From an uncultured Actinomycetes bacterium (lineage in GTDB: Bacteria; Actinomycetota; Thermoleophilia; UBA2241), in assembly GCA_963725665.1 (NCBI GenBank), contig CAVRZA010000011.1, positions 553,914-617,913 on the forward strand: DNA of 64,000 bases, written 5' to 3'. The notes under the pieces were generated by a model. That model was not told where the DNA came from and ran no database searches. It was given only the letters and a program-made list of their open reading frames with translations. This document shows, one piece after another, positions 8,973 to 31,135 of this stretch (position 1 is its first letter; each line of letters opens with the position of its first letter). The translations under genes were made by a program, and so were the position numbers.

Positions 8973-11844
8973 CGGCTCAGCCTCCTTGTCGCGCCGTGCT
9001 TCCGGCGCAACAGCCATTTTCTCGCTTCCTCGGCGAAGAACAAAGTGACCGCCGCGATGACGAGGAATCCCCAGTCGTTCAGCGAGAGTGGGCCGGTCTT
9101 GAGGATGTTCTGCAGGAACGGCACGTAGGAGATGGCGGCCATCAACAGCACGGCGAACATCTCGCTGAAGACGATCCATTTGTTGCTGAAGATGCCGATC
9201 TTGAACAGCGACTCACGCTCGGTGCGGCAAGCGAAGCCGTTTGCCACCTGACCGGCGACGATGGCCGCCTGGGTCATCGTCACGGCCTCGAGGTAGGCGC
9301 CGTAGTGGGGGCTGGCCGGGTTCATCCAGGTCGTGTCGCCCCAGGCCCAGCCGTGGGACAGCAGAACGTAGAGGAACCCCGAGACCGCGAATACCGACTG
9401 GATCGCGCCGATGAAGACGACGCGCCGGAGCGTCGGCCTGCTGAGGATGCGCTCGCTGCGGGGGCGCGGCGGCTGCGCCATGACTCCCGGCTCAGGGGGC
9501 TCGGTGCCCAGCGCCAAGCCGGGCAACACGTCGGATCCGAGGTCGATCGAGAGGATCTGGATGGCGCCCAGTGGAACTAGGCCGACCCCGCCGATGACCG
9601 CGAACATGTACGGAAACAGCTCGGCGAAGTTGTGCGAGAAGATGTACGTGACCATCTTCTTGACGTTGGCGTACACTCCGCGGCCCTGCTCGACCGCCTT
9701 GACGATGCTGGCGAAGCTGTCGTCGAGCAGGATCATGATCGCCGCCTCACGCGCGACGTCGGTGCCGCTGATGCCCATGGCCACGCCGATGTCGGCCTTC
9801 TTGAGCGCCGGCGCGTCGTTCACGCCGTCGCCGGTCACGGCGACGATCTCGCCCATCTCCTTGAGGACCGAGACGACCTCCATCTTGTGCTCCGGGGCCA
9901 CCCTGGCGAAGATCACGTCCTGCGGTTTCGTCGAGCTCGGCCTTGAGGTCGTCTTCGCTCATGCCCTCGAGGTCGACATCCCGGTGATCACGCGCACGTT
10001 CTTGTCGCCGCGCACGATGCCGATGCGGCGGGCGATGGCCTCGGCGGTGAGGCCGTAGTCGCCCGTGACCATGATGATGCGGATGCCGGCGGCGAGAGCG
10101 CGTTCTCGACCGCCTCGGCGACCTCGGGGCGGGGCGGATCGATCATGCCCGACGAAGCCGAGGAACGTGAGGTCGGTCTCGACGGTGTCGGGTGTGTAGT
10201 CGGTGAGGTCCGGGGGCAGGTCGCGCTCGGCGACGGCGAGCACGCGCAGCGCCTGGCGCGACATGTCGTCGTTCTGCGTCGAGAATGCTGCCGACGCAGC
10301 TCGTCGGTCAGCGGCACGACCTGCCCGTCGAGCCTGATGTGCGTGCAGCGAGGGATGGTCTCCGAGGGAGCGCCCTTCACGTAGGCGCTTCTGCCCGTCG
10401 CCCTCGACGTGGATCGACCGACATGCGCTTGCGCACCGACTCGAACGGGAGCTCGTAGATCTTGGGCCGTGCCGCGAGCTCCTCGCGCAGGTCGAAGCCA
10501 GCCTTGCCTGCAGCCACGAGCAGCGAGCCCTCGGTCGGGTCGCCGATCACCTGCCAGCCCTCGTTGTCGCGCGGGGTCAGCAGCTTGGCGTCGTTGGCGA
10601 AGCGTCATGGCGCGCAGCAGCGGCTCGAGCCTCTGGCGCGCCTCGTCCCTTCGGCAGGGCGTTGTCGTCGACCACGAAATCGCCGACCGGTTCGTAGCCG
10701 GCGCCGGTGACCTCGATCGGCTGTCGCCGCCCACGTAGAGCTCCTTGACGGTCATCTCCGCCTTGGTCAGCGTGCCGGTCTTGTCTGTGCAGACGACGTT
10801 GGTGCAGCCGAGCGTCTCAACGCCGGAGAGCTGCTTGATGAGGGCGTTCAGCTTCGCCATGCGCTGCACGCCCACGGCGAGCGCCACCGACAGCGTGGCC
10901 GGCAGTCCCTCGGGCACGAAGCACACCATGACGCCCATGGCGAACAGCAACGCCTGGATCCAGGTGAGGTTGAGGCCCAGTGGGCCCATGAAGAACAGCA
11001 GGACACCGACGGCGATCGCCATGATGGAGACCGTGCGCGCCATGCGGTCGATCTCGCGCTGCAGGGGCGACTTCTCGTCGGAGACGCCGGCGGTGAGCTC
11101 GAAGATGCGCCCGAACTCGGTGTTCGAAGGCCGGTGGCGAACACGACCGCCTGCCCGGTACCGAGGCCACGCTCGTCCCCATGAACACCAGGTTCGGCAT
11201 GTTGATGGTGGCCAGGTCCTCTTCGACTAAGGGGTCGGCCGTCTTGCGCACTGCGTCGGATTCGCCGGTGAGGGCGATGTTGATGGTCGACATCTCGTAC
11301 TGGCGAATGAGGCGGGCGTCGGCGCTGATCGCGTCGCCCTCTTCGAGGACGATCACGTCGCCGGGCACCAGGTCGGCTGCCGCGACGATCGTGACCTCGC
11401 CTTCGCGAACGACCTTGGCGTTCGCGGGGCACCAGCTTCTGCAGCGCTTCTGTCGCCTTCTCGGCGCGGTACTCCTGGATGAAGCCGATGACGGCGTTCA
11501 GCACGACGACGCCCATGATGGCGATGGCGACGTTGAGGTTGTCCTGGCGGCTCGATCCCGAGGACAGCAGCGCCGCGATGAACACGAGCAGGGCGCCGAC
11601 CTCGAGCATGATGGCGAAGAGCGTGGTGAACTGGTCGAAGAAGCGATAGATGAGCGGCGGCCCGACCCGGTCGGCAGGATGTTGCGCCCGTGGTGCTCGA
11701 GTCGCCGAAAGGCCTCGTCCTCGGTCAGGCCGCGCGCTGAGGTGTGCAGCGCCTCGTAGACTTGTTCTTGAGGTACCTGCCAGATGCCGAGTGCCTCCGC
11801 GGCGCCGGACGCGGGTTCAGCGAGACGCCCGTGGCGGGTGTCAC
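8963..11844 (-). pseudogene. Cation-translocating P-type ATPase (P2-like, Ca2+/Mg2+ type); frame interrupted by at least 14 single-nt indels
   Basis: Correct-frame pieces are spread over three minus frames: ...GLTEDEAFRRLEHHGRNILP, LVPGDVIVLEEGD, CTDKTGTLT, YVKGAP, MIDPPRPEV, IIMVTGD, VTGDGVNDAPALK, and the C-terminal TM block. At the sites I examined the switches sit in short G/C runs (for example GG to GGG at about 10150, CCC to CCCC at about 11425). The 5' end (GTG 11844) is uncertain. Confidence 0.8.
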
Positions 11845-12013
11845 TTGCTCAGGCGTCGACAGCGTGGTGGTCTTCTGGGACACGGGACCTCACAAAGCCT
11901 GGCGACAGGCAACGTGCGTTTCGTACACCTTGGCGAGCCTCGACGCAAGCTGTCGGGCGCTTGGGGGCCGGTGACGCTCGAAGAGGAGAGCCGCTCCTGC
12001 GGTCAGCGACCCG

Positions 12014-13178
12014 TCACGAGGCCTCGACCACGTCAGCCGTGGCCTTGCTGGGGTCGGCCACCACCAGGACGTCGATGTAGTCGGCCGTCGCGCATGATCT
12101 TGGCGATGAGCGACGAACCCCGGAGCGACCTCGTCGAAGCGGGATCGCTTCGACTGGCCCATGAGGACGTACGTGGCCCGGTTCTCCCGGGCGAACTTCA
12201 GGATCTCGTCGGCCTCCGAATCACCGTTGAGCTCTACGACCTGGCCGCCGAGATTGCGGGCCAGGTCGTACGCTCGTTGAGCTCGCGCTGATGGCCGCCG
12301 AGCGTCTCGCCCGCCGTGTGCACGTGGACGACCCAGAAGTGCCCCTGCAGACGCTTGGCAAGCCTGTAGCCACGGCGCACCAGCTTCTTCGCGACCGAAC
12401 CGCCTTTGATGCAGACGACCACTCGGTCTTCCGTCGCCCAGGGCGCTGTGGTCTCGTGGTCCTCCAAGTAACTCTCGAGGGTCTCGTCGACCTCCTCGGC
12501 GGTCTTGCGCAGCGCCAGCTCGCGCAGCGCCACGAGGTTTCCGCGGCGGAAGAAGTTGCGCAGCGCGCCGGGGATCTTCTCGAGGTCGTAGACCACGCCG
12601 CGGTTGAGGCGGTTGATGAGGGCGTCGGCTGTGAGGTCGACGAGCACCACCTCGTCGGCGCGATCGAGCATGGAGTCGGGTATCGTCTCGCGCACGCGCA
12701 CGCCGGTGATCTCGAAGACGGTGTCGTTCAGGCTCTCGAAGTGCTGCACGTTGACAGTGGAGATGACGTCTGATGCCGGCGTCGAGGATGTCGTCCACGC
12801 TCTGCCAGCGCTTCTCGTGGTCGGTCCCGGGGATGTTGGTGTGCGCCAGTTCGTCGACGAGGACGACACCGGGACGACGGGCGATGACCGCGGCGGTGTC
12901 GATCTCCTCGAAGACTTACGGCCGCGATAGTCGATTGCCTTGCGGGAAGGATCGGCAGTCCTTCGGCGAGTTCCTCTATCGCCTGCCGACCGTGCGTCTC
13001 GACGAAGCCGACGACGATGTCCTCGCCGCGCGACAGGCGGCGGTGGGCCTCGAGCAGCATGGTGAACGTCTTGCCGACACCGGGGGCGTAGCCGAGGAAG
13101 ATCTTGTGGCGCCCGGCTTGCGGAGCGTCTTCAGGGTGAAGAGGTCGCCGGTCTCTGGGCTGAGTCGTCCTCTTCCAT
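12014..13178 (-). pseudogene. Stand-alone KdpD N-terminal sensor domain + Usp domain protein; about 8 frame breaks
   Basis: Pieces read HKIFLGYAPGVGKTFTMLLEAHRR, VLVDELAHTNIPGTDHEKRW, STVNVQHFESLND, LVALRELALRKTAEEVD, then Usp-like VVCIKGG...YVLMGQSKRSRF...DVLVVADP. No kinase domain follows. Confidence 0.75.
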
Positions 13179-13183
13179 CACAC

Positions 13184-13766
13184 TCACTGTAGGGCGTCTG
13201 TGCGGCGTCGAGGGCGAGATTCAAAGCGGAGCACGTTCACACGAGGTTCGCCAAGAAAGCCGAGCTGGCGTCCGGTGGTGTGTCGTCGATAAGCGCGAGC
13301 ACGGCGGAGACGGTCGTGCCGCGGGCTGCGGCGACGCGCGCCGCCTGCGCGCGCGCGTTGGCGATGGTGATGTCGGGATCGAGACCACTCGCCGAGGTCG
13401 TCACCATGTCGATCGGCACGGCGCCGAATCGCAGCCCGGGGTTGGCGGCGATCTCCTGCTTGACGGAGGTCTGACCCGGTCGGCGAGCGTCTTGTTGGTC
13501 GGCCCCAGGTTCGAGAACGACGAGGCCATCGCGTCGTAGCCCTCCCCGGCGGCGGATAGGCGAGGCTGGAAGTACTTGGCCGCCGTGAAGTTCTGTCCGA
13601 TCAGGCTTCGACCCGATCGACTGCTGCCGTTCTTCTTGACGAGGCTGCCGTTGGCCTTGCCGGGAAAGATGACCTGTGCCAGGCCGGTCATGACCAGCGG
13701 GTAGATGATGCCCGCTATCACTGCTGTGACGATCGTCATGCGAATCGAGATCCAGACGTATTTCAC
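13184..13766 (-). pseudogene. kdpC: K+-transporting ATPase subunit C, at least 3 frame breaks in the 3' half
   Basis: MKYVWISIRMTIVTAVIAGIIYPLVMTGLAQ...NLGPTNKTLADRV, then PIDMVTTSASGLDPDIT... and GFLGEPRVNVL / LNLALDAA in other frames. The exact stop is unresolved. Confidence 0.7.
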
Positions 13767-13784: not shown

Positions 13785-15839
13785 CTAGGTCGTCAAGTGA
13801 GTCGCCACGAGGATCAGGTCGATGATCTTGATGCCGATGAAGGGAGCTACCACTCCCCCGAGGCCGTAGACGAGCAGGTTGTAGCGCAGCAGCCGGGCGG
13901 CCGGCCAGGGCCGGTATTTCACGCCACGCAAGGCGAGTGGGATCAGCATGACGATGATGATCGCGTTGAAGATCACCGCCGAGAGCACGGCGCTGTGCGG
14001 CGAGTGCAGGCCCATGACGTTGAGGCTCGAGAGCTCGGGGAACGAGACCATGAACATCGCCGGGATGATGGCGAAGTACTTGGCCACGTCGTTGGCGATG
14101 CTGAACGTTGTCAATGCGCCGCGGGTGATGAGGAGCTGCTTGCCGATGGCCACGATCTCGATGAGCTTTGTCGGGTTGGAGTCGAGGTCGACCATGTTGC
14201 CGGCCTCCTTGGCGGCCGACGTGCCGGTGTTCATGGCGACGCCGACGTCGGCCTGCGCCAGCGCCGGCGCGTCGTTCGTGCCGTCCCCTGTCATAGCGAC
14301 CAGCTTCCCCTGCCGCTGCTCGCTACGGATGAGCTCCATCTTGGTCTCGGGCGTCGCCTCGGCAAGGAAGTCGTCAACACCGGCCTCCTTGGCGATGACC
14401 GCCGCCGTGAGCGGGTTGTCCCCCGTGATCATGACGGTGCGGATGCCCATGGCGCGCAGCTCATCGAAGCGCTCGCGCATACCGCCCTTCACGATGTCCT
14501 TCAGGTGGATGACGCCAAGGACCTTCTGGTCGCTCGCGACCGCCAGGGGCGTCCCGCCCTGCAGCGATACCTTCTCGATCGTCTCTTCGAGCAGGGGTGG
14601 GACCTCGCTGCCACGCTGGCGCACCCAGCTGATGATGGCGTCGCCGGCGCCCTTGCGCACAGCGTGCCCGTTCAGGTCGATGCCGCTCATGCGCGTCTGC
14701 GCGCTGAACTCGATGAAGGTGGCCTTCTCTGGGTCGATGTGACGCCCGCGAATGCCGTAGTTCTTGGCCAACACAACGATCGAGCGGCCCTCGGGCGTCT
14801 CGTCGGCGAGGGAGGCGAGCTGCGCGGCGTCGGCGAGCTCCTCCTCTGACACGCCGGACATGGGGATGAACTCGGAGGCCTGCCGGTTGCCCAGCGTTAT
14901 CGTCCCCGTCTTGTCGAGCAGCAACGTGTCGACGTCGCCCGCGGCCTCCACCGCGCGCCCCGACATGGCGAGTACGTTGTGGCGCACGAGCCGGTCCATG
15001 CCTGCGATGCCGATCGCCGAGAGTAGCCCGCCGATGGTCGTCGGGATGAGGCACACAAGCAAGGCGATCAGGACCGTGGCTGACTGGGCCGCATTGCTGT
15101 AGATCGCGAACGGCTGCAACGTCATGATCACGATCACGAAGATGATCGTCAGGCCGGCGAGGAGGATCGTCAGGGCGATCTCGTTGGGGGTCTTCTGGCG
15201 CTGGGCGCCCTCGACGAGGGCGATCATGCGATCGAGGAACGTCTCGCCGGGGTCGGAGGTGATCCTGACCCGAATCTGGTCGGACAGGACTTTCGTGCCG
15301 CCGGTGACGGCGCTGCGGTCGCCGCCGCTCTCGCGGATGACCGGCGCAGATTCGCCCGTGATGGCGGACTCGTCGACCGAGGCGATGCCCTCGATGATGT
15401 CGCCATCGCTGGGGATGATCTCGCCCGCCGAAACGATGACCACGTCGCCGCGGCGCAGCTGCGTCGCCGGCACCTGCTCGAGGCCGGTCTCGGTGACGAG
15501 GTTGGCGAGCGTCTCGGTCTTCATCTTGCGCAGCGCATCGGCTTGGGCCTTGCCGCGACCCTCGGCCATGGCCGTGGCGAAGTTGGCGAAGAGCACCGTG
15601 AACCAGAGCCAGCCGGCGACGGCGCCGACGAACGCCGTATCGCTGCTCGAGCGGATGAGTCCGGCTATGAAATAGTAGGTGGTGATCGCGCTGCCGACCT
15701 CGACCACGAACATGACTGGGTTGCGGGCTACGTCGCGCGGGTCAAGCTTGACGAATGAGCTGCCGATCGCCGGCCAGATGAGGTCGCGCATGGAGGCGGT
15801 CTCCCGCCGCAGGGGCTTGTCGTGGGTGTCGTCAGCCAT
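13785..15839 (-). CDS. kdpB: K+-transporting ATPase subunit B (operon 1)
   Basis: Intact 684-aa ORF with [17 protein letters not shown] and [18 protein letters not shown]. Confidence 0.95.
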
Positions 15840-15851
15840 CGCAGTCGCCCG

Positions 15852-17579
15852 TCATCCGAAGAGCTTGCCGGCGTTCATGAGGAACTGTTCGACGATCGGG
15901 CCGAGCGCCAGCGCCGGGAAGAACGTCAGCGCCCCCACGATGAGGATCACGCCCACGAGCAGCACGACGAAGATCACGCCGGTTGTGGGGAACGTACCGG
16001 GCGAGGGCGGCACCGACTTCTTGCCGGCCAGCGAGCTGGCCAGGGCCAAGCACGGGATGATGAAGAAGAAGCGCCCCCACATCATGCAGAGGCCGCCGAT
16101 CGTGCTCCAGAACCGCCCGCTGGCCGTGAGACCGGCAAAGGCGCTGCCGTTGTTGCCGGTCTGTGAGAACGTCCCGTAGAGGATCTCCGAGAGGCCGTGG
16201 GGGCCGGGGTTCAGCGCAGCCTCCTTGCCGGCCGGCAGGACGGCCGCCAGCGCGGCGAAGCCCAGGGCGGTCACGCAGTAGTACAGGACCGCAAGGACGG
16301 CGAGCTTCATCTCGCGGCCCTCGATCTTCTTGCCCAGGTACTCAGGCGTGCGGCCGACCATGAGGCCGGCGATGAACACCGCGAGAATGGCGTTGATCAG
16401 CAGTCCCATGAGGCCGACGCCGACACCGCCAAACACCACTTCCCCGAGGGCCATGTTCAGCATGGCGAAGCCACCCGCGATCGGCGTCAGGCTGTCGTGC
16501 GCGGTGTTGACCGCACCGCACGACGTGTCTGTGGTCGTGGTGGCCCAGAGGATCGACGCGGAGATCCCGAAACGGACCTCCTTGCCCTCCATGTTGCCGC
16601 CGGACTGGGTCGAGCTGAGCGTCTGATCCGCCCCAAGCTTCGTCAGGATCGGGTTGCCTCGCTGCTCGCTGGCGTACATCACCGCCACGCTCATGAGCAG
16701 GATGGCCATGGCCGCCGCGAAGAGCGCCCACCCCTGTCGCTGATTGCCCGCGAAGCGCCCGAACGTGTAGGTGAGCGAGACGGGGATGGCGAGCAGCATC
16801 AGGTCCTCGAACAGGTTGCTGAACGGCGTCGGGTTCTCGTAGGGGTGCGCCGAGTTGGCGTTGTAGGAGCCGCCGCCGTTGGTGCCCAGCTCCTTGATGA
16901 TCTCCTGCGAGGCGAACGGTCCCTGCGCTATGGTCTGCGTGATCCCCTCGACCGTGACGGCGCGCGTCGGGGCGTTGAGGTTCTGCACGACGCCCTGCGA
17001 TACGAGCACGAGCGTCCCGACGATCGAGATTGGCAGCAGCACGTAGAGGAAGCTGCGCGTGAGGTCGACCCAGAAGTTGCCCAGCTCGCGTCTTGAGTGT
17101 CGCGTGAGCCCGCGGATGAACGCTACGGCGACCGCGATGCCGACGGCGGCCGACACGAAGTTCTCGCGCGCCAGCGCGAGCATCTGCGTCAGGTAGCTCA
17201 CCTGCGTCTCGGGGACGTAGACCTGCCAGTTGGTGTTGGTCGCGAAGCTGACGGCGGTGTTGAAGGCCACCGTGGGGCTCATGTCGGGGACGTGTGCCGG
17301 GTTCAGCGGCAAGTGACCCTGGAGCCGGAGTATCAGGTAGATGAAAAGCAGGACCACGAAGTTGAAGACGAGGAGTGACACCGCGTACGCCACCACCCCC
17401 ATCTCGCGGGTCTCGTCGACGCCACACAGGCGGTAGGTCAGCCTCTCCACGGGACGAACGATGGGGTGGAGGAAGGTGCGTTCGCCGCGGAAGACGTGCG
17501 CCATGAAGAGCCCCAGGGGTTTGGCGATCAGTCCGAGCAGGACGACGTAGACGACGATCTGCAGGATCCCCCAACCCAT
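15852..17579 (-). CDS. kdpA: K+-transporting ATPase subunit A (operon 1)
   Basis: Intact 575-aa polytopic ORF with KdpA selectivity-filter-like segments (TNTNWQ, GTNGGG, NNGSAFAG). Confidence 0.95.
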   Translation of the reverse strand: MGWGILQIVVYVVLLGLIAKPLGLFMAHVFRGERTFLHPIVRPVERLTYRLCGVDETREMGVVAYAVSLLVFNFVVLLFIYLILRLQGHLPLNPAHVPDMSPTVAFNTAVSFATNTNWQVYVPETQVSYLTQMLALARENFVSAAVGIAVAVAFIRGLTRHSRRELGNFWVDLTRSFLYVLLPISIVGTLVLVSQGVVQNLNAPTRAVTVEGITQTIAQGPFASQEIIKELGTNGGGSYNANSAHPYENPTPFSNLFEDLMLLAIPVSLTYTFGRFAGNQRQGWALFAAAMAILLMSVAVMYASEQRGNPILTKLGADQTLSSTQSGGNMEGKEVRFGISASILWATTTTDTSCGAVNTAHDSLTPIAGGFAMLNMALGEVVFGGVGVGLMGLLINAILAVFIAGLMVGRTPEYLGKKIEGREMKLAVLAVLYYCVTALGFAALAAVLPAGKEAALNPGPHGLSEILYGTFSQTGNNGSAFAGLTASGRFWSTIGGLCMMWGRFFFIIPCLALASSLAGKKSVPPSPGTFPTTGVIFVVLLVGVILIVGALTFFPALALGPIVEQFLMNAGKLFG

Positions 17580-17594
17580 GGCGCTTCCGGCTGC

Positions 17595-17684
17595 CTAGAA
17601 CTTCTCTGGTCTCAGAAGGGAGTAGAAGAGGTAGATGATCAGGGCGACTGCAATGATGCCGAGGATGAGGTAGGCGACGTTCAC
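17595..17684 (-). CDS. kdpF: K+-transporting ATPase subunit F (operon 1)
   Basis: My translation gives MNVAYLILGIIAVALIIYLFYSLLRPEKF (29 aa) from GTG 17684. It has the typical KdpF C-terminal LLRPExF and ends 15 nt before kdpA. Confidence 0.8.
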   Translation of the reverse strand: MNVAYLILGIIAVALIIYLFYSLLRPEKF

Positions 17685-17690
17685 CTTCGT

Positions 17691-17780
17691 CTACAGGCGA
17701 GGAGCCAGCCGAGCGTAGGCGAGAGAGAGGAAGAAGAACGCCATCACCACGGCGACGCAGGCAACATCACCCATCCCCAT
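17691..17780 (-). CDS. Second small hydrophobic peptide upstream of kdpF (29 aa)
   Basis: MGMGDVACVAVVMAFFFLSLAYARLAPRL. ATG 17780 is preceded by GGAAGGAG. The stop lies 6 nt before the kdpF GTG. Confidence 0.5.
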   Translation of the reverse strand: MGMGDVACVAVVMAFFFLSLAYARLAPRL

Positions 17781-17947
17781 GCTCCTTCCGCTGTCGGCCT
17801 TGTTCTTCCCGAGCATACAACCAGATAACGACTACACAAACCGTAGCCTGTTCGGCCCGGGCCACCGGGCGTCGGCCCGCGTGCGACGCAATTCGGCGGC
17901 GCTCCTTTGGGTGCACCGTGATCCGAGCGTAACTGTCCTTGGGCACA

Positions 17948-17989
17948 GTGATGCCCGCCGTCCTCGGGCGGGAGGACGGCGGGCATCAC
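17948..17989 (-). terminator. 18-bp perfect hairpin after the small membrane protein gene and upstream of the kdp-1 promoter region
   Basis: GTGATGCCCGCCGTCCTC-gggcgg-GAGGACGGCGGGCATCAC. Confidence 0.55.
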
Positions 17990-18004
17990 TCTGACTAAGG
18001 CGCG

Positions 18005-18265
18005 TCAGTGACGGTAGGAGTGCGCAAACCTCGGAGTGCGCACGTACCTGGCGGGCGCAGGCTTCTCGGCCGGACGCTCGTCGGCCAAACGCTCCTGGGC
18101 CGGGCGCTTCGCCAGGATGAGACGGGCGACCTCACTCTGCTCCCGCCGATAGCGCTTGATGGCGCGCTCCTCGAAGATGAGCCAGAGAAGGTAGACCAGC
18201 GCACCCGCTGCCGCGACGGTCGCTGCGACCGCCACGAACGCAATCAAATCTGCTGCAACTGCCAC
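18005..18265 (-). CDS. Small membrane protein sp1 (86 aa): one N-terminal TM helix + basic tail
   Basis: GTG 18265 is preceded by GGGAGG (7-nt spacer). Sequence: MAVAADLIAFVAVAATVAAAGALVYLLWLIFEERAIKRYRREQ...FAHSYRH. It is the C-terminal part of track ORF 18005..18454. A composite promoter lies directly upstream. Confidence 0.6.
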   Translation of the reverse strand: MAVAADLIAFVAVAATVAAAGALVYLLWLIFEERAIKRYRREQSEVARLILAKRPAQERLADERPAEKPAPARYVRTPRFAHSYRH

Positions 18266-18287
18266 TTCTGCACCTCCCAACTCCCGC

Positions 18288-18353
18288 AGCGTACCCCGGC
18301 GTATGTTAAGAAGCCGTAAAGACCACGCCGGTCCATGTGAATGTTTCCTAAAG
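18288..18353 (-). promoter_or_regulatory. Composite promoter copy C (drives sp1): four phased half-sites + GGG-TACGCT
   Basis: In gene orientation: CTTTAG-gaaac-ATTCAC-N15-CTTTAC-ggctt-CTTAAC-atacgccgGGG-TACGCT. Confidence 0.65.
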
Positions 18354-18472
18354 GCCAAGCGAGCGCCCCCGAGGCCGAGAGGTTGGCGGCAGCGGTCGCC
18401 GCGGTCTGCCCGCCGGCTCGCGAGTGCCGATTGGGACCTGCAGTCGTCTGCCACTCCGACGCCGCAGGCTTC

Positions 18473-18553
18473 CTACTCGTGCGTGGTCAGCTTGTATCCG
18501 GCAAGCAGGAAAATGGCCATCAGAGCCAGCCACACAAGTGCTTCCAGAGCCAC
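18473..18553 (-). CDS. Small hydrophobic peptide sp2 (26 aa)
   Basis: TAAGGAGGTG lies 6 nt before GTG 18553. Sequence: MALEALVWLALMAIFLLAGYKLTTHE. The overlapping track ORF 18348..18560 is Arg-rich junk. Confidence 0.45.
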   Translation of the reverse strand: MALEALVWLALMAIFLLAGYKLTTHE

Positions 18554-18578
18554 CGTCCACCTCCTTACATGCACAAGC

Positions 18579-18644
18579 AGGGTACCCAGGGTCCTCTTAA
18601 GGCCTCGTGAAGCGAGGGCGTAGAGGCGTGAAGTTTGCGTGAAC
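18579..18644 (-). promoter_or_regulatory. Composite promoter copy A (drives sp2)
   Basis: In gene orientation: GTTCAC-gcaaa-CTTCAC-N15-CTTCAC-gaggc-CTTAAG-aggaccctGGG-TACCCT. Confidence 0.65.
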
Positions 18645-18847
18645 ACCCTGAGCGTCGTTCGCGACCACAGGCGATCGAAGATCAGGGGGTCGAGTCACAC
18701 ACGGTCCGCCCAACCGGAGAGGCACGAGCGCGATCGAGGAAGAGCGCCACGCTCGGTTCCGTCTGCCCCGCGCTGGGCTTGCCGACGGCCTTTAGATCTG
18801 CCGACCCTCGTTCCTCTCTGCGCCTCTGTCGGCGCTGCGGGGACCGG

Positions 18848-18913
18848 CTTTATCTAATCTTTATGCACTTGTGACTACGTTTTACTAATGGTTAACGTCG
18901 TTTCGGGAACATG
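18848..18913 (+). promoter_or_regulatory. Composite promoter copy for the kdp-2 operon
   Basis: CTTTAT-ctaat-CTTTAT-N15-TTTTAC-taatg-GTTAAC-gtcgtttcGGG-AACATG. The spacing is the same as in the other copies, but the -10 position deviates from TAnnnT. Confidence 0.6.
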
Positions 18914-18996
18914 TCGCGCAGTCGGTTCAGTTGATGTCCAGTGCCGGGGGCTGCCGTCGCCGGCCTTGAACGAGTCAGCCATGGAGGTCGGAGCTG

Positions 18997-19080
18997 ATGC
19001 CCGATTTCGTTGCAGTACTTATCGCCTTGGCGTGCTTCGCGGTGCTGTTCGTGCTCCTCTACGCCCTGGAGCGCGTGTGA
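18997..19080 (+). CDS. KdpF-like small hydrophobic peptide upstream of kdpF (27 aa)
   Basis: MPDFVAVLIALACFAVLFVLLYALERV. GGAGG lies 9 nt upstream. The stop overlaps the kdpF ATG (TGATG). Confidence 0.55.
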   Translation: MPDFVAVLIALACFAVLFVLLYALERV

Positions 19081-19169
19081 TGGCCGCCGCAGACGTCTTC
19101 GGATTGGCGATCGCGGTGGCGATCGCCGTGTATCTCCTCTACGCACTCTTCAGAGGGGAGCGATTCTGA
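19080..19169 (+). CDS. kdpF: K+-transporting ATPase subunit F (operon 2)
   Basis: MAAADVFGLAIAVAIAVYLLYALFRGERF (29 aa). The stop overlaps the kdpA ATG (TGATG). Confidence 0.8.
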   Translation: MAAADVFGLAIAVAIAVYLLYALFRGERF

Positions 19170-20860
19170 TGACCCCCGAAGGTATCGGCCAGATCGCCCT
19201 CTACGTCGCCCTCCTGATCGCGTTCGCCTATCCACTAGGCCGTTACTACATGGCCTGGGTCTACACGCACGGGCGCGACGATCCTGTGGAGCGGGGCATG
19301 TTCCGGCTGTTCGGGCGTGGCAGCGGCAGCGAGCAGGACTGGAAGAGCTATGCCAAGACTGTGCTGATCTTCAGTCTCGTCTTCTCCGGCGTGCTCTATG
19401 CGATCATGCGTCTCCAGGCCCGCCTGTTCCTCAACCCGGACCACCTGGCCGCGGTTCCCTGGCACATCTCGCTCAACACAACCGCTAGCTTCATCACGAA
19501 CACCAATTGGCAGTACTACGCCGGCGAATCGACGATGTCGTACCTGAGCCAGATGGCCGGCCTGGCGGTGCAGAACTTCGTCTCCGCCGCCGTGGGCATG
19601 GCGGTGCTGGCGGCCGTCGTGCGCGGCTTCTCGCGCCGCTCGCGGCACGAATTGGGCAACTTCTGGCGCGATCTCTATCGCTCCCTGGTGTACATCCTGC
19701 TGCCACTTTCGATCGTCGTCGCGGTGATCCTGATCTCGCAGGGCGTGCCCCAGACGTTCCACGCGCACGCCACGGCGACCACGCTGCAGGGCGCCCATCA
19801 GACGATCGCCCGTGGCCCCGTCGCCTCGCAGATCGCCATCAAGCAACTGGGCACCAACGGCGGCGGCTACTACAACTCGAACTCCGCTGTTCCTCTCGAG
19901 AATCCGACAGGGCTCTCGAACTTCGCCGAGATGCTCGCGATCCTGCTGATCCCCGCCGCCCAGGTGTTCATGTTCGGGCGCATGGTGCGAGCCCGCCGCC
20001 ACGCCTGGATGGTTTTCGCGGCGATGTTCGTCATGTTCGTGATCGGTATCGGCGTCAACCTGGCGGCCGAGCAGCACGGTTCGCAGGTGCTGCGCGGCGC
20101 AGGCGTGAACATCGCCGCGGGCCAGGGGCAGAGCGGCGGCAACATGGCCGACAAGGAGGTCCGCTTTGGCATCGCCGCCACAACGAACTGGACGGTCGCT
20201 ACGAGCGACGCCTCGAATGGCTCGGTAAACGGCGGTTTCGATGCCAACACCGCCATTGGCGGCGCCGTGCCCCTCGTCAACCTCTTCGTGGGTGAGGTCA
20301 TCTTCGGCGGCGTCGGCTCCGGACTGTACGGCATGTTCTTCTACATCGTGATCGCCGTGTTCATCGCCGGCCTGATGGTAGGTCGCACGCCGGAGTGGCT
20401 GGGCAAGAAGATCGAGGCGCGTGAGATCAAATACGCCGCTATCGGCGCGCTCTTCGTGCCTACCATGGTGCTCGTCATGACTGCGATCGCCGTGGCCGCG
20501 CCGGCGGGGCTCGCCTCGATCTTCAACCCGGGCGCCCACGGCTTCACGGAGGCGCTCTACGCGTACGACTCGCAGGCGAACAACAACGGCAGCGCCTTCG
20601 CTGGCTACGGGGCGACCACCTTCTCCGCCACCTTTGGCACGATCGCGCTCTACCTCGGCCGCTTCGCGCCGCTGCTGGCGGCGCTGGCCCTCGGGGGCTC
20701 GCTCGCGGGGAAGAAGGTAGCACCCGAGTCCGCGGGGACCTTCCGCACCGACGGCCCTACCTTCGTCGTCCTGCTCGTCGGCGTCATTGCGCTCACCGCC
20801 GGTCTGATGATCCTGCCCGCACTGAGCCTCGGGCCAATCGTGGAGTCACTGATGCACTGA
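19169..20860 (+). CDS. kdpA: K+-transporting ATPase subunit A (operon 2)
   Basis: MTPEGIGQIALYVALLIAFAYPLGRYY... This is track ORF 19010..20860 trimmed to ATG 19169. It is a paralog of the operon-1 KdpA. Confidence 0.95.
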   Translation: MTPEGIGQIALYVALLIAFAYPLGRYYMAWVYTHGRDDPVERGMFRLFGRGSGSEQDWKSYAKTVLIFSLVFSGVLYAIMRLQARLFLNPDHLAAVPWHISLNTTASFITNTNWQYYAGESTMSYLSQMAGLAVQNFVSAAVGMAVLAAVVRGFSRRSRHELGNFWRDLYRSLVYILLPLSIVVAVILISQGVPQTFHAHATATTLQGAHQTIARGPVASQIAIKQLGTNGGGYYNSNSAVPLENPTGLSNFAEMLAILLIPAAQVFMFGRMVRARRHAWMVFAAMFVMFVIGIGVNLAAEQHGSQVLRGAGVNIAAGQGQSGGNMADKEVRFGIAATTNWTVATSDASNGSVNGGFDANTAIGGAVPLVNLFVGEVIFGGVGSGLYGMFFYIVIAVFIAGLMVGRTPEWLGKKIEAREIKYAAIGALFVPTMVLVMTAIAVAAPAGLASIFNPGAHGFTEALYAYDSQANNNGSAFAGYGATTFSATFGTIALYLGRFAPLLAALALGGSLAGKKVAPESAGTFRTDGPTFVVLLVGVIALTAGLMILPALSLGPIVESLMH

Positions 20861-21447
20861 TGCGTACGCTCCTTCGCACACTCATCGCCGTCGTCGCGCT
20901 CACCGCGGTCTTCGGCCTCGCCTACCCTGCGATCATGGTCGGTTTCGCATCGCTCTCGTTCTCGGGCAAGTCACAAGGCAGCCTGATCTACCACAACGGC
21001 AGCGTGGTGGGTTCGCGCCTGGCGGCGCAGGAATTCACCGACCCCCGCTACTTTCATGAGCGGCCCTCGGCTACGTCGCCCGCGTACAACGCCGGTGGGA
21101 CGACCTTCGCCAACCTGGGGCCCACAAACCCCGATCTCACAAAAGCGGTGCGCGAGCAGGCGCAGGCGATCCTCAAGCTCGAGGGTCCCTACAACCCGGG
21201 TCTGACGATCGGCGATATCCCCGTCGACGCCGTCACGACCTCCGGCTCCGGCATCGACCCTCATGTCTCACCTGCTTACGCGGAGCTGCAGGCTCCTCGC
21301 ATCGCCGCTGTGCGGCAACTGCCTCTCGCCACGGTCGAGAGGCTGGTCAAAGACAACACTGACGGTCGCAGCCTAGGCTTCCTCGGTGAGCCTGGTGTGA
21401 ACGTCCTCGAGCTCAACCTTGCGCTCGACAGGCTAGGAGGCAAGTAG
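20860..21447 (+). CDS. kdpC: K+-transporting ATPase subunit C (operon 2), placed between kdpA and kdpB
   Basis: 195 aa with [23 protein letters not shown] and [18 protein letters not shown]. Confidence 0.95.
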
Positions 21448-21449
21448 GC

Positions 21450-23510
21450 ATGGCAAGGCGCTCAAGCGTCTTCTCGCGCGAGCTCGCGCTCGCAGCGGTG
21501 CGCGATTCCTTCCCCAAGCTCAACCCACGCAACCAGATCAGAAACCCGGTCATGTTCGTGGTCGAGATCGGCAGCGTCATCACAACCGCGATCTTCTTCA
21601 TCGACCTCGTCCGCGGTCAGACCGGCCAGCTCTGGTTCGTCGGAACTATCTCGGTCTGGCTCTGGCTCACGGTGCTGTTCGCGAACTTCGCGGAGGCGAT
21701 CGCCGAGGGCCGCGGAAAGGCACAGGCAAATGCCCTGAGGGCGACCAGGACGACCACGATCGCCACCCGGCGGCGCGAGAGCGGTGCCCTCGAGCAGGTC
21801 CCCGCGCCGGAGCTCTCGCGTGGGGACGTCGTCATCGTTACGGCGGGCGAGATCATTCCCGCCGACGGCGAAGTGATCGAAGGCATCGGCTCGGTCGACG
21901 AGTCGGCGATCACTGGCGAGTCGGCCCCCGTGATCCGCGAAGCCGGCGGCGATCGCTCTGCCGTCACTGGCGGCACCAGGCTCCTCTCAGACCGACTCGT
22001 CGTCGAAGTCACCCAGGAGGCGGGCAAGTCGTTCCTCGAGAGGATGATCGCACTGGTCGAGGGCGCGGAGCGGCGAAAGACGCCGAACGAGATCGCGCTG
22101 AACATCCTGCTCGCTGGCCTGACGATCACCTTTCTCGTCGCGGTCGTCACCTTGCGGCCCTACGGACTCTATGCGCACACCAGCCTTTCGCAGACGGTGC
22201 TGATCGCACTGCTCGTCGCCCTGATCCCGACCACGATCGGTGCCCTGCTCTCAGCGATCGGCATCGCCGGTATGGACCGGCTCGTGCAGCGCAACGTGCT
22301 AGCCATGTCAGGGCGCGCAGTCGAGGCGTCGGGCGACGTTGACGTGTTGCTCCTCGACAAGACCGGCACGATCACGCTGGGCAATCGACAGGCGGTCAAC
22401 TTCATCCCCGCTCCCGGTGTGGACGAGCGGGAGTTCGCCGAGGTCGCGCAGCTGGCGTCGTTGGCCGATGAAACCCCCGAGGGTCGTTCCATCGTCGTTC
22501 TCGCAAAGGAACGCTTCAACCTGCGTGAGCGCACCCTGGGGGAAGAGGAAGTCGAGTTCGTGCCGTTCACTGCCGTCACACGTATGAGCGGCGTCAACCT
22601 CGAGGGCAGCATGATCCGCAAAGGCGCCGCCGACGCAGTAAGAGGCTTCATCGAGGAACGCGGCGGCACCGCCATCCCCGCCGAAATCCACGCGACCGTA
22701 CAGAGGGTCGCCGAGGAGGGCGGGACGCCCCTCGTCGTCGCCAAGGACGGCTCCGCACTCGGTGTCATCCAGCTGAAGGACGTCGTCAAGGGTGAGCTGC
22801 GTGAGCGCTTCGACGGCATGCGGAAGATGGGCATCCGCACCGTGATGATAACGGGCGACAATCGAGTCACCGCAGCTGTGATCGCCAAGGAGGCCGGTGT
22901 CGACGACTTCCTTGCGGAGGCAACGCCGGAGGCAAAACTCGCACTCATCCGCGAGGAGCAGGCGCGCGGCCGTATGGTCGCCATGACCGGTGACGGCACT
23001 AACGATGCCCCGGCGCTGGCCCAGGCCGACGTGGGCGTGGCCATGAACGCCGGGACCTCCGCCGCCAAGGAAGCCGGCAACATGGTCGACCTCGACAACA
23101 ACCCGACGAAGCTGATCGAGATAGTAGAGGTCGGCAAGCAGCTCCTGATCACCCGCGGCGCCTTGACCACGTTCTCGATAGCCAACGACGTGGCCAAGTA
23201 CTTCGCCATCCTGCCGGCGATGTTCGCCTTCACGTATGCGACGCATCCCGGCGAGCGCGGGCCGCTCAACTCGCTCAATATCATGCACCTGGGAGATCCG
23301 AAGAGCGCGATCATCTCCGCGATCATCTTCAACGCCCTGATCATCGTGGCGCTCATCCCCCTCGCCCTCAAAGGCGTCCGCTACCGCGCCATCGGCGCCA
23401 CTGCGCTGCTGCGGCGCAACCTCCTGATCTACGGGCTCGGCGGCATCGTCTTGCCGTTCGTGGGGATCAAGCTGATCGACCTCGTCGTCCACAACGTGCT
23501 TGGAGCTTAG
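21450..23510 (+). CDS. kdpB: K+-transporting ATPase subunit B (operon 2)
   Basis: 686 aa with [17 protein letters not shown] and [18 protein letters not shown]. Confidence 0.95.
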
Positions 23511-23617: not shown

Positions 23618-23683
23618 ATTAAGCGCATCTTTATGCCGGCAGAACTGCCCTTTACGGGTGATTAACGCGGTGCCGGGTAGCTT
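23618..23683 (+). promoter_or_regulatory. Composite promoter copy for the cNMP/CBS/DUF294 gene
   Basis: ATTAAG-cgcat-CTTTAT-N15-CTTTAC-gggtg-ATTAAC-gcggtgccGGG-TAGCTT. Confidence 0.65.
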
Positions 23684-23776: not shown

Positions 23777-25612
23777 GTGGCGGTCACAGCTCTCAAGAAG
23801 AGCCCAACGAATGAGCGGGTCGGATTCCTCTCGCGCCTCGAACTGTTCAAGGGACTCGACCAGGACGAGCTCGAGCGGATAGCAGCGGCGATCTCGGTGC
23901 AGATCGCCGCTGCCGGAGAGGCGGTCCAAGTGGAGAGCGGCATCCCCGGCGACCACCTGTTCGTTGTGCTTGACGGCACCCTCGAGCTCATCCACAAGGG
24001 CGCCGTCGTGGCCATCCTCTCCAAAGGGGAGGTGTTCGGACACTCTACCCTGCTCACCGGACTGCCACCCGAGTTCACGACACGTGCGGGAACCCCTTCC
24101 ACGCTCTGGCGCATCCCGAAAGACATCGCCGTCGACCTCCTGAGTCGGCCTGCAGGGGTGAGGTTCGTCGCCGACACGCTGCGCGAGCAGCTGATCCAAG
24201 CGGCGCGATCCACGAACGGGGCTGCCGATCTCGCTGCGCGGCCGGTGGTGTCGCTGGTGCGCGGAGCACCCGTGTTCTGCGAGGCGGACGCGACGATCCG
24301 TGAGGCGGCGACGCTCATGAGCGCCAGCAGAGCGAGTGCGCTCTTGGTGCGGACGGTCGGGGGTCTTGGCATCGTCACTGACTCCGACCTGCGCGAGAAG
24401 GTCGTGGCCGGCGACGTTCCCCGAGACGCCGCGGTCACTGCCGTCATGACGACCCCGGTGGAGAGCGTCGCTGCCGACCGGCTGGGTCCCGAGGCCGCGG
24501 TCCAGATGATGGCCGCCGGCGTCAACCATCTCGTTGTCGAGGACAAGGCCGGCAGGCTCGTCGGCGTCCTGTCGGCCGCGGACCTCGTTTCCCTCGACGC
24601 GCGCAGCCCCTTCGCCCTGCGGCGCCGGATTCAGGAGGCACGGAACGAAGACGATCTTGTGGCGGCATCCAGGGATCTACCTGCCCTGTTCGCCGAGCTG
24701 CTCGACGCCCGGGTCGATGCCCCTGCTGTGGCTCGGATCCTGACCGTGCTCTGCGATGCCATGACAGTGCGTCTGCTGGAGCTCTTCTTCGACCGGCATG
24801 GCCAGCCACCAGTCGGCTACGCCTGGCTTTTGTTCGGCAGCAGCGCCCGGAACGAGCTCACTCTGGCCTCCGACCAGGACAACGGCATCGCCTACGAGGA
24901 CGGCGACGACCCCCGCGTCGAGGACTACTTCCGCGAGCTGGCCGAGGACGTCAACGACGGGCTGGTCCGCAGCGGCTTCGCCGCCGACCCCCACGGCACG
25001 GTGGCGCAGAACTGGCAGTGGCGCCTGCCCCTCTCGCTGTGGCGCTCCGTCTTCGCCCGCTCGCTCGAGGACAGGGACGTCAATCGCCTCGCCCGTGCCA
25101 GCGTCGCCTTCGACTTCCGGCAGCTGGCCGGGGACTTGGCGGTGGCCGGGCCACTGACCGAGATCATGCGCGAGGCGCCCGGCCACCGCCGCTTCATGAG
25201 CGGTCTCGCCCAGCTCGCGACGCGCAACCCCCTGCCGTTGTCTGGCCTGCGCCAGCGGGTGGCGGGTCGGCTCGACGTGAAACGGGAGTGCCTGCGGCCG
25301 ATTCAGAACTTCGCCCGCTACCAGGCCCTGCTGGCGGGCATCAGCGCGCACTCCACCCTAGATCGACTCGCGGGGGTGCGCGAGGCGGGCCTGCTGGACC
25401 GTGAGAGCGAGCAGTCGCTGAGCGACGCCTTCACGATCCTGCTGGGCCTGCAGCTGCGACATCACGGCGACGCCCTGGGCGAGGGGCGCCCCCTCGACAA
25501 CGAGCTCTACGTGGAGAGCCTTCGCCCGCTCACACGGGCCAGCCTCCAGGAGGCGCTGCGCGTGGTGGCGGCCACACAGCGGCGCTTCCCGCGGCTGCCG
25601 GCCCTGGGCTGA
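23777..25612 (+). CDS. cNMP-binding + tandem CBS + DUF294-type nucleotidyltransferase protein
   Basis: GTG 23777 follows AGGAGG. The N-terminus FLSRLELFKGLDQDELERIA...GEVFG is a cNMP-binding fold. Two CBS-like segments follow, then the nucleotidyltransferase motif LLFGSSARNELTLASDQDNGI and a C-terminal helical domain. Confidence 0.8.
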   Translation: MAVTALKKSPTNERVGFLSRLELFKGLDQDELERIAAAISVQIAAAGEAVQVESGIPGDHLFVVLDGTLELIHKGAVVAILSKGEVFGHSTLLTGLPPEFTTRAGTPSTLWRIPKDIAVDLLSRPAGVRFVADTLREQLIQAARSTNGAADLAARPVVSLVRGAPVFCEADATIREAATLMSASRASALLVRTVGGLGIVTDSDLREKVVAGDVPRDAAVTAVMTTPVESVAADRLGPEAAVQMMAAGVNHLVVEDKAGRLVGVLSAADLVSLDARSPFALRRRIQEARNEDDLVAASRDLPALFAELLDARVDAPAVARILTVLCDAMTVRLLELFFDRHGQPPVGYAWLLFGSSARNELTLASDQDNGIAYEDGDDPRVEDYFRELAEDVNDGLVRSGFAADPHGTVAQNWQWRLPLSLWRSVFARSLEDRDVNRLARASVAFDFRQLAGDLAVAGPLTEIMREAPGHRRFMSGLAQLATRNPLPLSGLRQRVAGRLDVKRECLRPIQNFARYQALLAGISAHSTLDRLAGVREAGLLDRESEQSLSDAFTILLGLQLRHHGDALGEGRPLDNELYVESLRPLTRASLQEALRVVAATQRRFPRLPALG

Positions 25613-25806: not shown

Positions 25807-25850
25807 GCGGACGGGCCCGCCGAGCCGTGAGGTTCGGCGGGCCCGTCCGC
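25807..25850. terminator. 17-bp perfect hairpin in the 420-bp spacer between the DUF294 gene and kdpE
   Basis: GCGGACGGGCCCGCCGA-gccgtgaggt-TCGGCGGGCCCGTCCGC. No U-tract on either strand. Confidence 0.4.
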
Positions 25851-26035
25851 GAACAGCTGGCGGCACGTGTTGTGTGAGGAACATCGCCAGCGGGGTGCTA
25901 CCATATACAGGGGGGAATAGAGGACGGTCTCTGTCAGCACGGGTCCGTTGTGCCGGGAGGCGCGGCCAACCGATGCACGCACCACCCTACGGCTGCGCGT
26001 GCGGGATGCCGGTTTAGGCCGGCGCGGAGGGGGCA

Positions 26036-26749
26036 GTGAGCGGAATCCCCGAACGTCCGACTCGCATCCTTGTCGTCGACGACGAGGAGCAGATACGGCG
26101 CGCCGTTGGCTCGATTCTCCGTGCCAGAGGCTATGCACTTGACCTTGCGGCGACTGCCCACGAGGCGCTGCTCACCGCCATCGACCATCCGCCCGATCTC
26201 GTCGTGCTCGACCTCGCGCTGCCCGATCGCAGCGGCATCGAGGTCTGTCGTGAGTTGCGCTCGTGGACGAGTGTCCCAATCCTCGTTCTGTCGGTGCGCT
26301 CTGCTGAGCACGACAAGATCCAGGCCCTGGACGAGGGGGCCGACGACTACCTGACGAAGCCCTTCTCGGCGGGAGAACTGTTGGCGCGCGTGCGCGCCCT
26401 CCTGCGACGGGCGGCGTCACGGACGATACCGCCGCCCGTGGTGGAGGTGGGCGATCTCGTGGTCGACATCGCGCGGCGGCGCGTGACTCTCGCGGGCGAC
26501 GATGTATCCCTCACGCCGACCGAGTTCGACATCCTCGCCTATCTGGCCCGCAACGCCGATCTCGTCGTGACGCAGCGTCAGATTCTCGAGGAGGTATGGG
26601 GACCTGAGTGGGCCGAAGACGCGCAGACGTTGCGCGTGCACGTCAGCCACCTACGCAGGAAGATCGAGCCGACGCCAAGCGGCCGTCGCTACATCATCAC
26701 GGAGCCGCGCATAGGCTTTAGGTTCTCGACCGCTGAGGACTCTACTTGA
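26036..26749 (+). CDS. kdpE: OmpR-family response regulator, KdpE-like
   Basis: Receiver domain (ILVVDDEE...DLVVLDLALPD...KP) plus a winged-helix domain (LTPTEFDILAYLARN...LRVHVSHLRRKIE). Confidence 0.85.
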   Translation: MSGIPERPTRILVVDDEEQIRRAVGSILRARGYALDLAATAHEALLTAIDHPPDLVVLDLALPDRSGIEVCRELRSWTSVPILVLSVRSAEHDKIQALDEGADDYLTKPFSAGELLARVRALLRRAASRTIPPPVVEVGDLVVDIARRRVTLAGDDVSLTPTEFDILAYLARNADLVVTQRQILEEVWGPEWAEDAQTLRVHVSHLRRKIEPTPSGRRYIITEPRIGFRFSTAEDST

Positions 26750-28319: not shown

Positions 28320-28469
28320 GCCAAACACACTCTATCGCTGACGGAGGCCCCGGTGGACCTGGCAGACAGTGCCGACGGGGAGCCAGCACACGCGGCTGCA
28401 GCGCGTGTGTGCTTGGATTTCAGGAGCGAAGCTCAGAAAGGAAGCCCTTGAAGGGCGAGCTTCCCGGGC

Positions 28470-28739: not shown

Positions 28740-28805
28740 AGGCTACCCGTGGGTGTGTTAAGGACGTGTGAAGCGAACGCACCAGAACATAAAGGTTCTG
28801 TTAAG
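28740..28805 (-). promoter_or_regulatory. Composite promoter copy B (drives sp3 and possibly the kinase)
   Basis: In gene orientation: CTTAAC-agaac-CTTTAT-N15-CTTCAC-acgtc-CTTAAC-acacccacGGG-TAGCCT. Confidence 0.65.
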
Positions 28806-29431: not shown

Positions 29432-29581
29432 GACGAGCGCTTGATTCCCGCAGCGCGGTCTAGGCAACGCGCCGGGCGTTTGCGCGGCGGTCGTCGTGAT
29501 CGACGACCGCCGCATCCCTCGGTGTCAGTTCGGAGCTCGTCGCGCCGACTGACCGGTCGGCGCGACCGAGCCGGAGACTCC

Positions 29582-31135
<1,554 letters not shown>

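Follow-up and report, generated by a model that had tools for sequence, protein, structure and literature searches.

In this study, we examined a 66-bp composite element that occurs five times at the kdp locus of an uncultured Actinomycetes bacterium (Actinomycetota, Thermoleophilia, UBA2241), within a 64,000-nucleotide stretch of DNA with a G+C content of 68.6% (assembly GCA_963725665.1, contig CAVRZA010000011.1, positions 553,914 to 617,913 of the forward strand), here called the window. Sequence comparison indicates that each copy is very probably a promoter that depends on KdpE, the response regulator encoded at the same locus. A unit would comprise two KdpE boxes, each a pair of head-to-tail (C)TTNAY half-sites 11 bp apart. 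The circuit is the known KdpD/KdpE-kdp circuit, KdpE boxes upstream of kdp genes are what a specialist would expect, and the basic picture of kdp control is unchanged. What the five copies provide is a testable KdpE operator model for a GC-rich, uncultured actinobacterial lineage. They suggest that KdpE recognition (TTNAY with an 11-bp period) is conserved from Proteobacteria to Actinobacteria, point to KdpE acting with two dimers from a position that replaces the -35 hexamer, and bring out small unannotated membrane proteins and a DUF294 protein as candidates in K+ starvation. The copies were first pointed out in an earlier reading of the DNA letters alone, below called the sequence-only reading.

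Five composite units at the kdp locus

The unit reads hexamer-N5-hexamer-N15-hexamer-N5-hexamer-N8-GGG-hexamer, that is, four CTTNAY-type hexamers (h1 to h4) at offsets 0, 11, 32 and 43, followed by eight bases, GGG and a TAnnnT hexamer at the -10 position, and the five copies align over 66 bp without gaps. Three of them lie in the region between two divergent kdp clusters. P(kdp-2) (18848-18913, forward strand) carries CTTTAT (18848-18853), CTTTAT (18859-18864), TTTTAC (18880-18885) and GTTAAC (18891-18896), with GGG at 18905-18907; AACATG (18908-18913) replaces TAnnnT here, and GAACAT, one base upstream (18907-18912), would retain the A at position 2 and the T at position 6. P(sp2) (18579-18644, reverse strand) carries GTTCAC (18639-18644), CTTCAC (18628-18633), CTTCAC (18607-18612) and CTTAAG (18596-18601), GGG at 18585-18587 and TACCCT at 18579-18584. 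P(sp1) (18288-18353, reverse strand) carries CTTTAG (18348-18353), ATTCAC (18337-18342), CTTTAC (18316-18321) and CTTAAC (18305-18310), GGG at 18294-18296 and TACGCT at 18288-18293. P(DUF294) (23618-23683, forward strand) is placed within a 215-bp gap 3' of kdpB2 and consists of ATTAAG, CTTTAT, CTTTAC and ATTAAC, GGG at 23675-23677 and TAGCTT at 23678-23683. P(sp3-kinase) (28740-28805, reverse strand) consists of CTTAAC, CTTTAT, CTTCAC and CTTAAC, GGG at 28746-28748 and TAGCCT at 28740-28745. Positions 2-3 are TT and position 5 is A in all 20 hexamers, position 6 is a pyrimidine in 17 of them, and the 11-bp period is exact.

The units stand far above chance expectation. Searching the 64 kb for TTNA-N7-TTYAY-N16-TTYAC-N6-TTAAS-N8-GGGWA with at most three mismatches returned exactly these five copies, and nothing in 100 dinucleotide-preserving shuffles. 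With a position weight matrix (PWM) of the composite, built from 20 non-redundant instances, the copies score 48.6-58.8 bits, P(sp3-kinase) being the highest at 58.8 bits; the next-best position in the window (4.8 bits) is an overlapping shift of a true copy, and the shuffles reach 1.6 bits at most. The minimal dimer TTNAY-N6-TTNAY occurs seven times in the window against 0.48 expected, each time within a composite, and the PWM found no additional single or weaker boxes in the rest of the window, including the regions upstream of the kdp-1 leader and of kdpE. Identity between copies is 74% over the hexamer, GGG and -10 positions, compared with 33% over the spacers. Each copy is directed at a start codon 22-93 nt downstream, and a Shine-Dalgarno sequence precedes each of these starts. 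The sequence-only reading had described five gapless copies with unconserved spacers, each pointing at a downstream gene, and all of this was confirmed on rereading the sequences and scanning the window; its term "base-exact" holds for the distances and not for the sequence.

Conservation in related loci

The composite is conserved at kdp operons of related bacteria. In a scan with the strict pattern of one genome for each of 185,579 species, we obtained six matches, two of them chance matches in AT-rich DNA and four in metagenome-assembled genomes (MAGs) of Actinomycetota/Thermoleophilia. All four MAG matches lie upstream of a small gene like sp1, followed by leader-kdpF-kdpA-kdpB(-kdpC), with a KdpE orthologue (77-81% identical) directly upstream of the motif wherever the flank exists. 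That the strict match is single in each of these genomes (n = 4), and at kdp, speaks for a full composite that is specific to kdp. With the pattern slightly relaxed, we obtained 15 metagenome loci, 11 of which have a kdp-associated composite; a further pair (L018/L020, from our numbering of related loci from genomes and metagenomes) is high-GC, scores 25.8 bits and is directed away from a distant kdpA. In support of these findings, four further loci were retrieved through the small protein alone, independently of the DNA pattern, and three carry a composite of 40-59 bits at the expected place. Overall, about 15 related Actinomycetota/Thermoleophilia loci have the composite 5' of an orthologous kdp operon. 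The orthologous intergenic regions, in which the sequence-only reading had proposed to look for the motif, do contain it, and the KdpE gene ends just upstream in nine of the nine loci with sufficient flank.

The position orthologous to P(sp1) is that of the first kdp-1 promoter in L001, L002, L004, L006-L010, L012, L015-L017 and L026-L028. The closest relative, L011, shares the three copies of the divergent region. For the sp1 and sp2 copies together, 64 of 66 hexamer, GGG and -10 positions are identical between L011 and the window, against 38 of 66 spacer positions (Fisher p = 3.5e-8); the core is identical at 33 of 33 positions in P(sp2) (spacers 20/33) and at 31 of 33 in P(sp1) (spacers 18/33). 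For P(kdp-2), the whole unit and the 5' untranslated region (UTR) are conserved. The intergenic DNA around the copies has many substitutions and indels.

Across genomes the hexamers are position-specific: h2 is mostly CTTTAT or CTTAAC, h3 CTTCAC, and h4 almost always CTTAAC/G, which suggests that the four sites are not interchangeable. In many relatives a weaker, second composite lies 3' of the small gene and 5' of leader-kdpF (L001 2151-2216; L002 5783-5848; L008 162-227; L010 3853-3918; L028 6326-6391). It reads CTTCAC-GCAAT-CTTCAC-N15-GTTCAC, with h1-h3 kept and h4 degenerate, then GGG-TAGCCT and a 5' UTR of about 170 nt, and it is absent from the window and from its nearest kdp-1 relatives, L004, L007 and L012. 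Other composites are directed away from kdp. One at L002 6398-6463 (forward strand, 45.7 bits) drives another small membrane open reading frame (ORF). Weaker ones (about 21-27 bits, no GGG) at L026 4954-5019 and L027 4880-4945 (both reverse strand) precede two unannotated genes (about 110 and 265-277 aa) divergent from kdpE.

The regulator and defined KdpE sites

The proposed binder of the hexamers is the KdpE-type response regulator encoded at 26036-26749 (forward strand). Its best match in the Protein Data Bank is E. coli KdpE (4KNY, E = 2.6e-65; also 4KFC), its top NCBIfam model is KdpE, and in alignment to the E. coli protein it keeps R193, R200 and T215. All three residues are required for DNA binding, and R193 is conserved only among KdpE orthologues (PMC3264566). 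The half-sites of the E. coli operator are TTTATA and TTTACA with a 5-bp spacer, the first two T being invariant across genera (Narayanan et al., PMC3264566). When the operator is located in the MG1655 sequence (NC_000913), its T-rich strand reads toward kdpF, the same orientation as in the window. The sequence-only reading had placed KdpE at 26036 and had given the E. coli half-sites and spacer, correctly on both counts; its suggestion that the hexamers are KdpE-type sites is supported, computationally, by the half-site match, the linkage to kdp and kdpE, and the conservation.

In Mycobacterium smegmatis, the KdpE site of the kdpF promoter was footprinted and trimmed to a 22-bp minimal site, CCGTAAAGAAACCATCAAGGCC, which its authors described as resembling no other KdpE site (Ali et al. 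2017, PMC5401905). Its reverse complement, GGCCTTGATGGTTTCTTTACGG, reads CTTGAT-GGTTT-CTTTAC and fits the motif described here. With a PWM of the single box, the M. smegmatis site scores 17.2 bits, the ten boxes of the window 12.9-23.6 bits and the E. coli site 13.7 bits. Loss of the five 5' bases CCGTA, and hence of the GTA of GTAAAG (CTTTAC on the opposite strand), abolished binding (PMC5401905), which matches a requirement for two half-sites. Our linking of this site to the box in the window is not published with the M. smegmatis work, and the unifying reading appears to be new. The matches to the E. coli and M. smegmatis sites are the strongest arguments for taking the hexamers as putative KdpE half-sites.

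Promoter architecture and proposed mechanism

In every copy, h4 ends 11 bp before TAnnnT (10 bp if the half-site is counted in the TTNAYN register). No copy contains a -35-like hexamer, and a sigma-70 scan of 17400-19300 gave no promoter-like site. If transcription starts about 7 nt after TAnnnT, h1 would lie at -72/-67, h2 at -61/-56, h3 at -40/-35 and h4 at -29/-24, the start sites being predicted. The arrangement is that of a class II, pho-box-like promoter, in which an activator box occupies the -35 position, no -35 is present and about 10 bp separate box and -10; the pho-box-like geometry that the sequence-only reading had seen is thereby borne out. We also considered the hexamers themselves as -35 elements of SigB/F- or sigma-70-type promoters and rejected this, since their distances to the -10, 8-11 bp for h4 and 19-22 bp for h3, do not suit such elements.

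We propose that, upon K+ limitation, the truncated KdpD-type kinase encoded at the locus phosphorylates the KdpE orthologue, and that one dimer of phosphorylated KdpE would then bind each box. With 32 bp, or about three helical turns, from one box to the next, both dimers would sit on one side of the helix. The proximal dimer would replace the missing -35 contact and recruit RNA polymerase, as PhoB does at pho boxes, and the distal dimer, at about -63, may add affinity or cooperativity. The predicted outputs are kdp-2 (kdpF-A-C-B), sp1 at the head of kdp-1, sp2, the cNMP/CBS/DUF294 protein, and sp3 together with the kinase gene, the last amounting to positive autoregulation.

The sigma factor that would serve these promoters has to be judged from the -10 region. 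Actinobacterial housekeeping -10 boxes read TAGnnT or TAnnnT. We favour a housekeeping sigma factor with GGG as an extended -10-like element, because no GTTT lies at 15-17 bp, the final T of the -10 is kept (18 of 20 instances) and G or C follows TA, where GGGTAT/C would have T or C. An unlikely competitor is a promoter activated by KdpE whose -10 is read as GGGTA by a sigma factor of the SigB/SigF type, which would tie K+ uptake to the general or osmotic stress response. The units do resemble SigF/SigB promoters (GTTT-N15-17-GGGTA) in having GGGTA at the -10: GGG directly precedes TA in four of the five copies, the fifth has GGGAA, and the feature is kept in nearly all relatives. In addition, the M. 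smegmatis kdpF promoter, GTTC-N13-GGGCA, has been described as SigF-like, the consensus being GTTT-N15-17-GGGTA (PMC5401905). At 15-17 bp before GGG, however, the units have the variable 5-bp spacer between h3 and h4, without a GTTT-like element, and the conserved final T and the G or C after TA fit TAnnnT better.

It is far less probable that the hexamers are bound by another regulator of the OmpR/PhoB family, such as PhoP, which recognizes GTTCACC every 11 nt, with KdpE irrelevant or one of two binders. Some hexamers are GTTCAC or CTTCAC followed by G (h1-h3 of P(sp2), and h3 of the second promoters of relatives), and these resemble the core GTTCACC of the Streptomyces coelicolor PHO box (PMC4415409). 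Cross-talk between KdpD and PhoR is also known in E. coli (PMC5458449). Against this, all true instances in genomes and metagenomes lie at kdp loci beside a KdpE orthologue and none at pst or pho genes, no further response regulator is encoded at the examined loci, and the consensus CTTTAT/CTTYAC/CTTAAC is TTNAY and KdpE-like, GTTCAC occurring only in a minority. The units have neither the GTTCACC repeats nor the phosphate-regulon genes that mark actinobacterial PhoP PHO boxes. The least credible explanation, that the copies are relics of a duplicated promoter and small-protein gene or a dispersed repeat with no shared regulator, draws on the weak family relationship of sp1, sp3 and the small proteins of relatives, by which some copies could derive from duplication, and fails on spacers at background identity (33%) against 74-81% for the hexamers, GGG and -10 across copies and genomes, on copies that also precede unrelated genes (the kdp-2 leader, DUF294 and sp2), and on the lack of terminal repeats or element-like flanks.

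Gene content of the locus

The gene map rests on Pfam and NCBIfam scans and on a reading of the small ORFs. On the reverse strand, P(sp1) is followed first by sp1 (18005-18265), an 86-aa single-pass membrane protein with a basic tail, then by a strong hairpin (17947-17989; -44.9 kcal/mol, z -8.1) that likely terminates or attenuates transcription ahead of the kdp-1 leader, and by the kdp-1 operon (13785-17780), which comprises a leader peptide (17780-17691), kdpF1 (17684-17595), kdpA1 (17579-15852) and kdpB1 (15839-13785). The kdpC1 ORF (13401-13766, reverse strand) matches the KdpC profile over its N-terminal half only (positions 3-93 of 182) and is either a frameshifted pseudogene or the product of an assembly indel; kdp genes are broken up in several related long contigs too, a hint of indel errors from long reads. 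Further 3', an ORF at 9988-11043 (reverse strand) has only a fragment of an E1-E2 ATPase domain. Between the two kdp clusters, together with its promoter, lies sp2 (18473-18553, reverse strand), a 26-aa hydrophobic peptide conserved in L011.

The kdp-2 operon (18997-23510, forward strand) begins 84 nt after P(kdp-2) with a leader peptide (18997-19080), followed by kdpF2 (19080-19169), kdpA2 (19169-20860), kdpC2 (20860-21447) and kdpB2 (21450-23510), an order of F-A-C-B (19169-23510) instead of the usual F-A-B-C. Each kdpF is thus preceded by a further hydrophobic ORF of 27-29 aa, MGMGDVACVAVVMAFFFLSLAYARLAPRL in kdp-1 (29 aa, 17691-17780, reverse strand) and MPDFVAVLIALACFAVLFVLLYALERV in kdp-2 (27 aa, 18997-19080, forward strand). 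The former is 52-59% identical in relatives, and neither matches the Pfam KdpF model. Upstream of the kdp-1 leader, at 17812-17840 (reverse strand), the sequence has no KdpE box but a candidate promoter of housekeeping type, TTTGTG-N17-TATGCT, whose -10 position is roughly conserved (GGGTAAGAT/GGGTAGGAT in L012/L004). Rfam covariance models at the gathering threshold gave two tRNAs in the window and no cis-regulatory RNA; a known RNA element or riboswitch in the kdp leaders, for example one for c-di-AMP, was considered and set aside, with only chance-level Rfam matches in 17500-19200 and in L001 1690-2600.

Downstream of kdp-2, the DUF294 gene (23777-25612, forward strand) encodes a cNMP-binding domain, a CBS pair, a DUF294 nucleotidyltransferase and DUF294_C; its start is likely the GTG at 23777, preceded by AGGAGG. 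It is followed by a hairpin (about 25807-25850, forward strand; -53.6 kcal/mol, z -10.4). Both this hairpin and the one after sp1 are probably terminators, and with them sp1 and the DUF294 gene look monocistronic. The hairpin separates DUF294 from kdpE, which seems to have a promoter-like stretch of its own (TTGTGT ... TACCAT, 25860-25915, forward strand) without KdpE boxes. Convergent with the regulator gene lies that of the truncated KdpD-type histidine kinase (26742-28328, reverse strand; DUF4118-GAF-HisKA-HATPase), which aligns to KdpD residues 395-883 only, and between the kinase gene and P(sp3-kinase) lies sp3 (28470-28697, reverse strand), a 75-aa single-pass membrane protein with a basic tail, as in sp1. 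Divergent from this promoter, a 785-aa ORF (28931-31288, forward strand) matches nothing in Pfam or NCBIfam and may be a spurious frame of GC-rich DNA.

The small membrane proteins and the kinase both have counterparts in relatives. The proteins sp1 and sp3 are weak paralogues and align with the small proteins of relatives as one family of weak similarity, comprising 62 clusters of single-pass proteins of about 78 aa, all unannotated and without a Pfam match. We considered whether they are paralogues of KdpF and rejected this, as the Pfam KdpF model matches only kdpF1 and kdpF2. In relatives, a separate KdpD_N+Usp protein is encoded directly after kdpC (L026 11330-12243; L029 9891-11057); in the window, only pieces of such a gene remain, in three frames at 11890-13060 (reverse strand), after the frameshifted kdpC1. 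In this lineage KdpD is split, with the kinase half beside kdpE and the KdpD_N+Usp half separate, after kdpC. The split KdpD context, and conserved unannotated small membrane proteins as first targets, appear to be new. A broader proposal would join the split KdpD and an undescribed class II double-box KdpE promoter to a regulon in which the sp1/sp3-type proteins, always first behind the strongest KdpE promoter, are accessory subunits of Kdp or modulators of the split sensor and DUF294 links K+ starvation to nucleotide signalling; taken as a whole, we regard it as rather doubtful.

Extent of the regulon

The sequence-only reading had suggested a K+-limitation regulon extending beyond kdp. Small membrane proteins, the DUF294 gene and the kinase gene do come out as predicted additional targets, and all of them are embedded in the kdp locus, the five sites spanning 10.5 kb inside it. 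P(kdp-2) precedes the leader-kdpF2-A-C-B genes, and P(sp1) heads the kdp-1 cluster. The closest DUF294 homologue (68% identity), in L022, has a partial composite of 15 bits at 693-758, with only the proximal box and GGG. This partial composite reads TTTCAC-N5-CTTAAC-N8-GGG-CACAAT and is separated from the gene by a called ORF of 70 aa. More distant homologues do not keep the DUF294 site, and this target is therefore a recent, lineage-specific recruit. L021 was considered as support for autoregulation of the kinase gene and rejected; its composite drives an sp1-like gene, and an integrase-like insertion precedes the kinase gene. The insertion (L021 1190-2848; an integrase-like ORF and neighbouring genes between the sp1-like gene and the kinase gene) suggests that this kdp regulatory region was invaded by a mobile element.

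Several observations weigh against the view that KdpE drives all five units. The regulator scores 235.6 bits, short of the equivalog cut-off (325) of the NCBIfam KdpE model. The known operators of KdpE have one box each: that of E. coli (-67..-51) lies upstream of a separate RNA polymerase site with -35 and -10, and that of M. smegmatis, seemingly in the opposite orientation as judged from the authors' primer naming, lies 2 bp upstream of the proposed GTTC -35. Our scan of the source genome covered these 64 kb only. The kdp-1 operon has no box of its own and is separated from P(sp1) by the -44.9 kcal/mol hairpin; this hairpin and the missing second promoter make KdpE control of kdp-1 uncertain. 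Of the three closest DUF294 homologues fetched, two (about 61-63% identity) have no kdp linkage and no motif. Finally, the sp3-kinase site has no clean counterpart, the kinase and regulator genes of relatives forming an operon with no composite upstream.

Comparison with known systems

The units share with the E. coli kdpFABC operator direct-repeat half-sites with an 11-bp period, the half-site in the window being TTNAY. The distal box, centred at about -63 if transcription starts 7 nt after the -10, would fall in the same upstream region as the E. coli box, for which the KdpE footprint is -72..-50 (PMC3264566); the box centres are offset by 4 bp, so that the helical phase need not agree. An equal 48-bp distance from box to TACCCT in E. 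coli and here was not used, as the published numbering puts the E. coli hexamer too near the transcription start for a -10. Unlike in E. coli, the second box here replaces the -35, C usually precedes TT, G+C is high in the spacers, a single locus has five promoters, and the N-terminal/Usp part of KdpD is missing from the kinase.

M. smegmatis belongs to the same phylum, and its box agrees with the one described here even in the spacer (cf. CTTGAT-AGGTT-CTTAAC in L010/L015). The M. smegmatis promoter is likewise reported to have a G-rich -10, GGGCA (PMC5401905).

In overall layout, the units resemble the class II pho-box promoters of PhoB, in which 11-nt direct repeats replace the -35. From the work of Makino, Wanner and Blanco, PhoB pho boxes are said to take the place of the -35, to end about 10 bp before the -10 and often to be present in multiple copies. 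The PHO box likewise consists of tandem direct-repeat units with an 11-nt period (PMC4415409). The half-site differs, being CTGTCAT in E. coli and GTTCACC in Streptomyces, as do the regulator and the signal. In the literature searched, we found no description of KdpE acting with two dimers from a -35-replacing position, and the double-box architecture, repeated five times at one locus, appears to be new.

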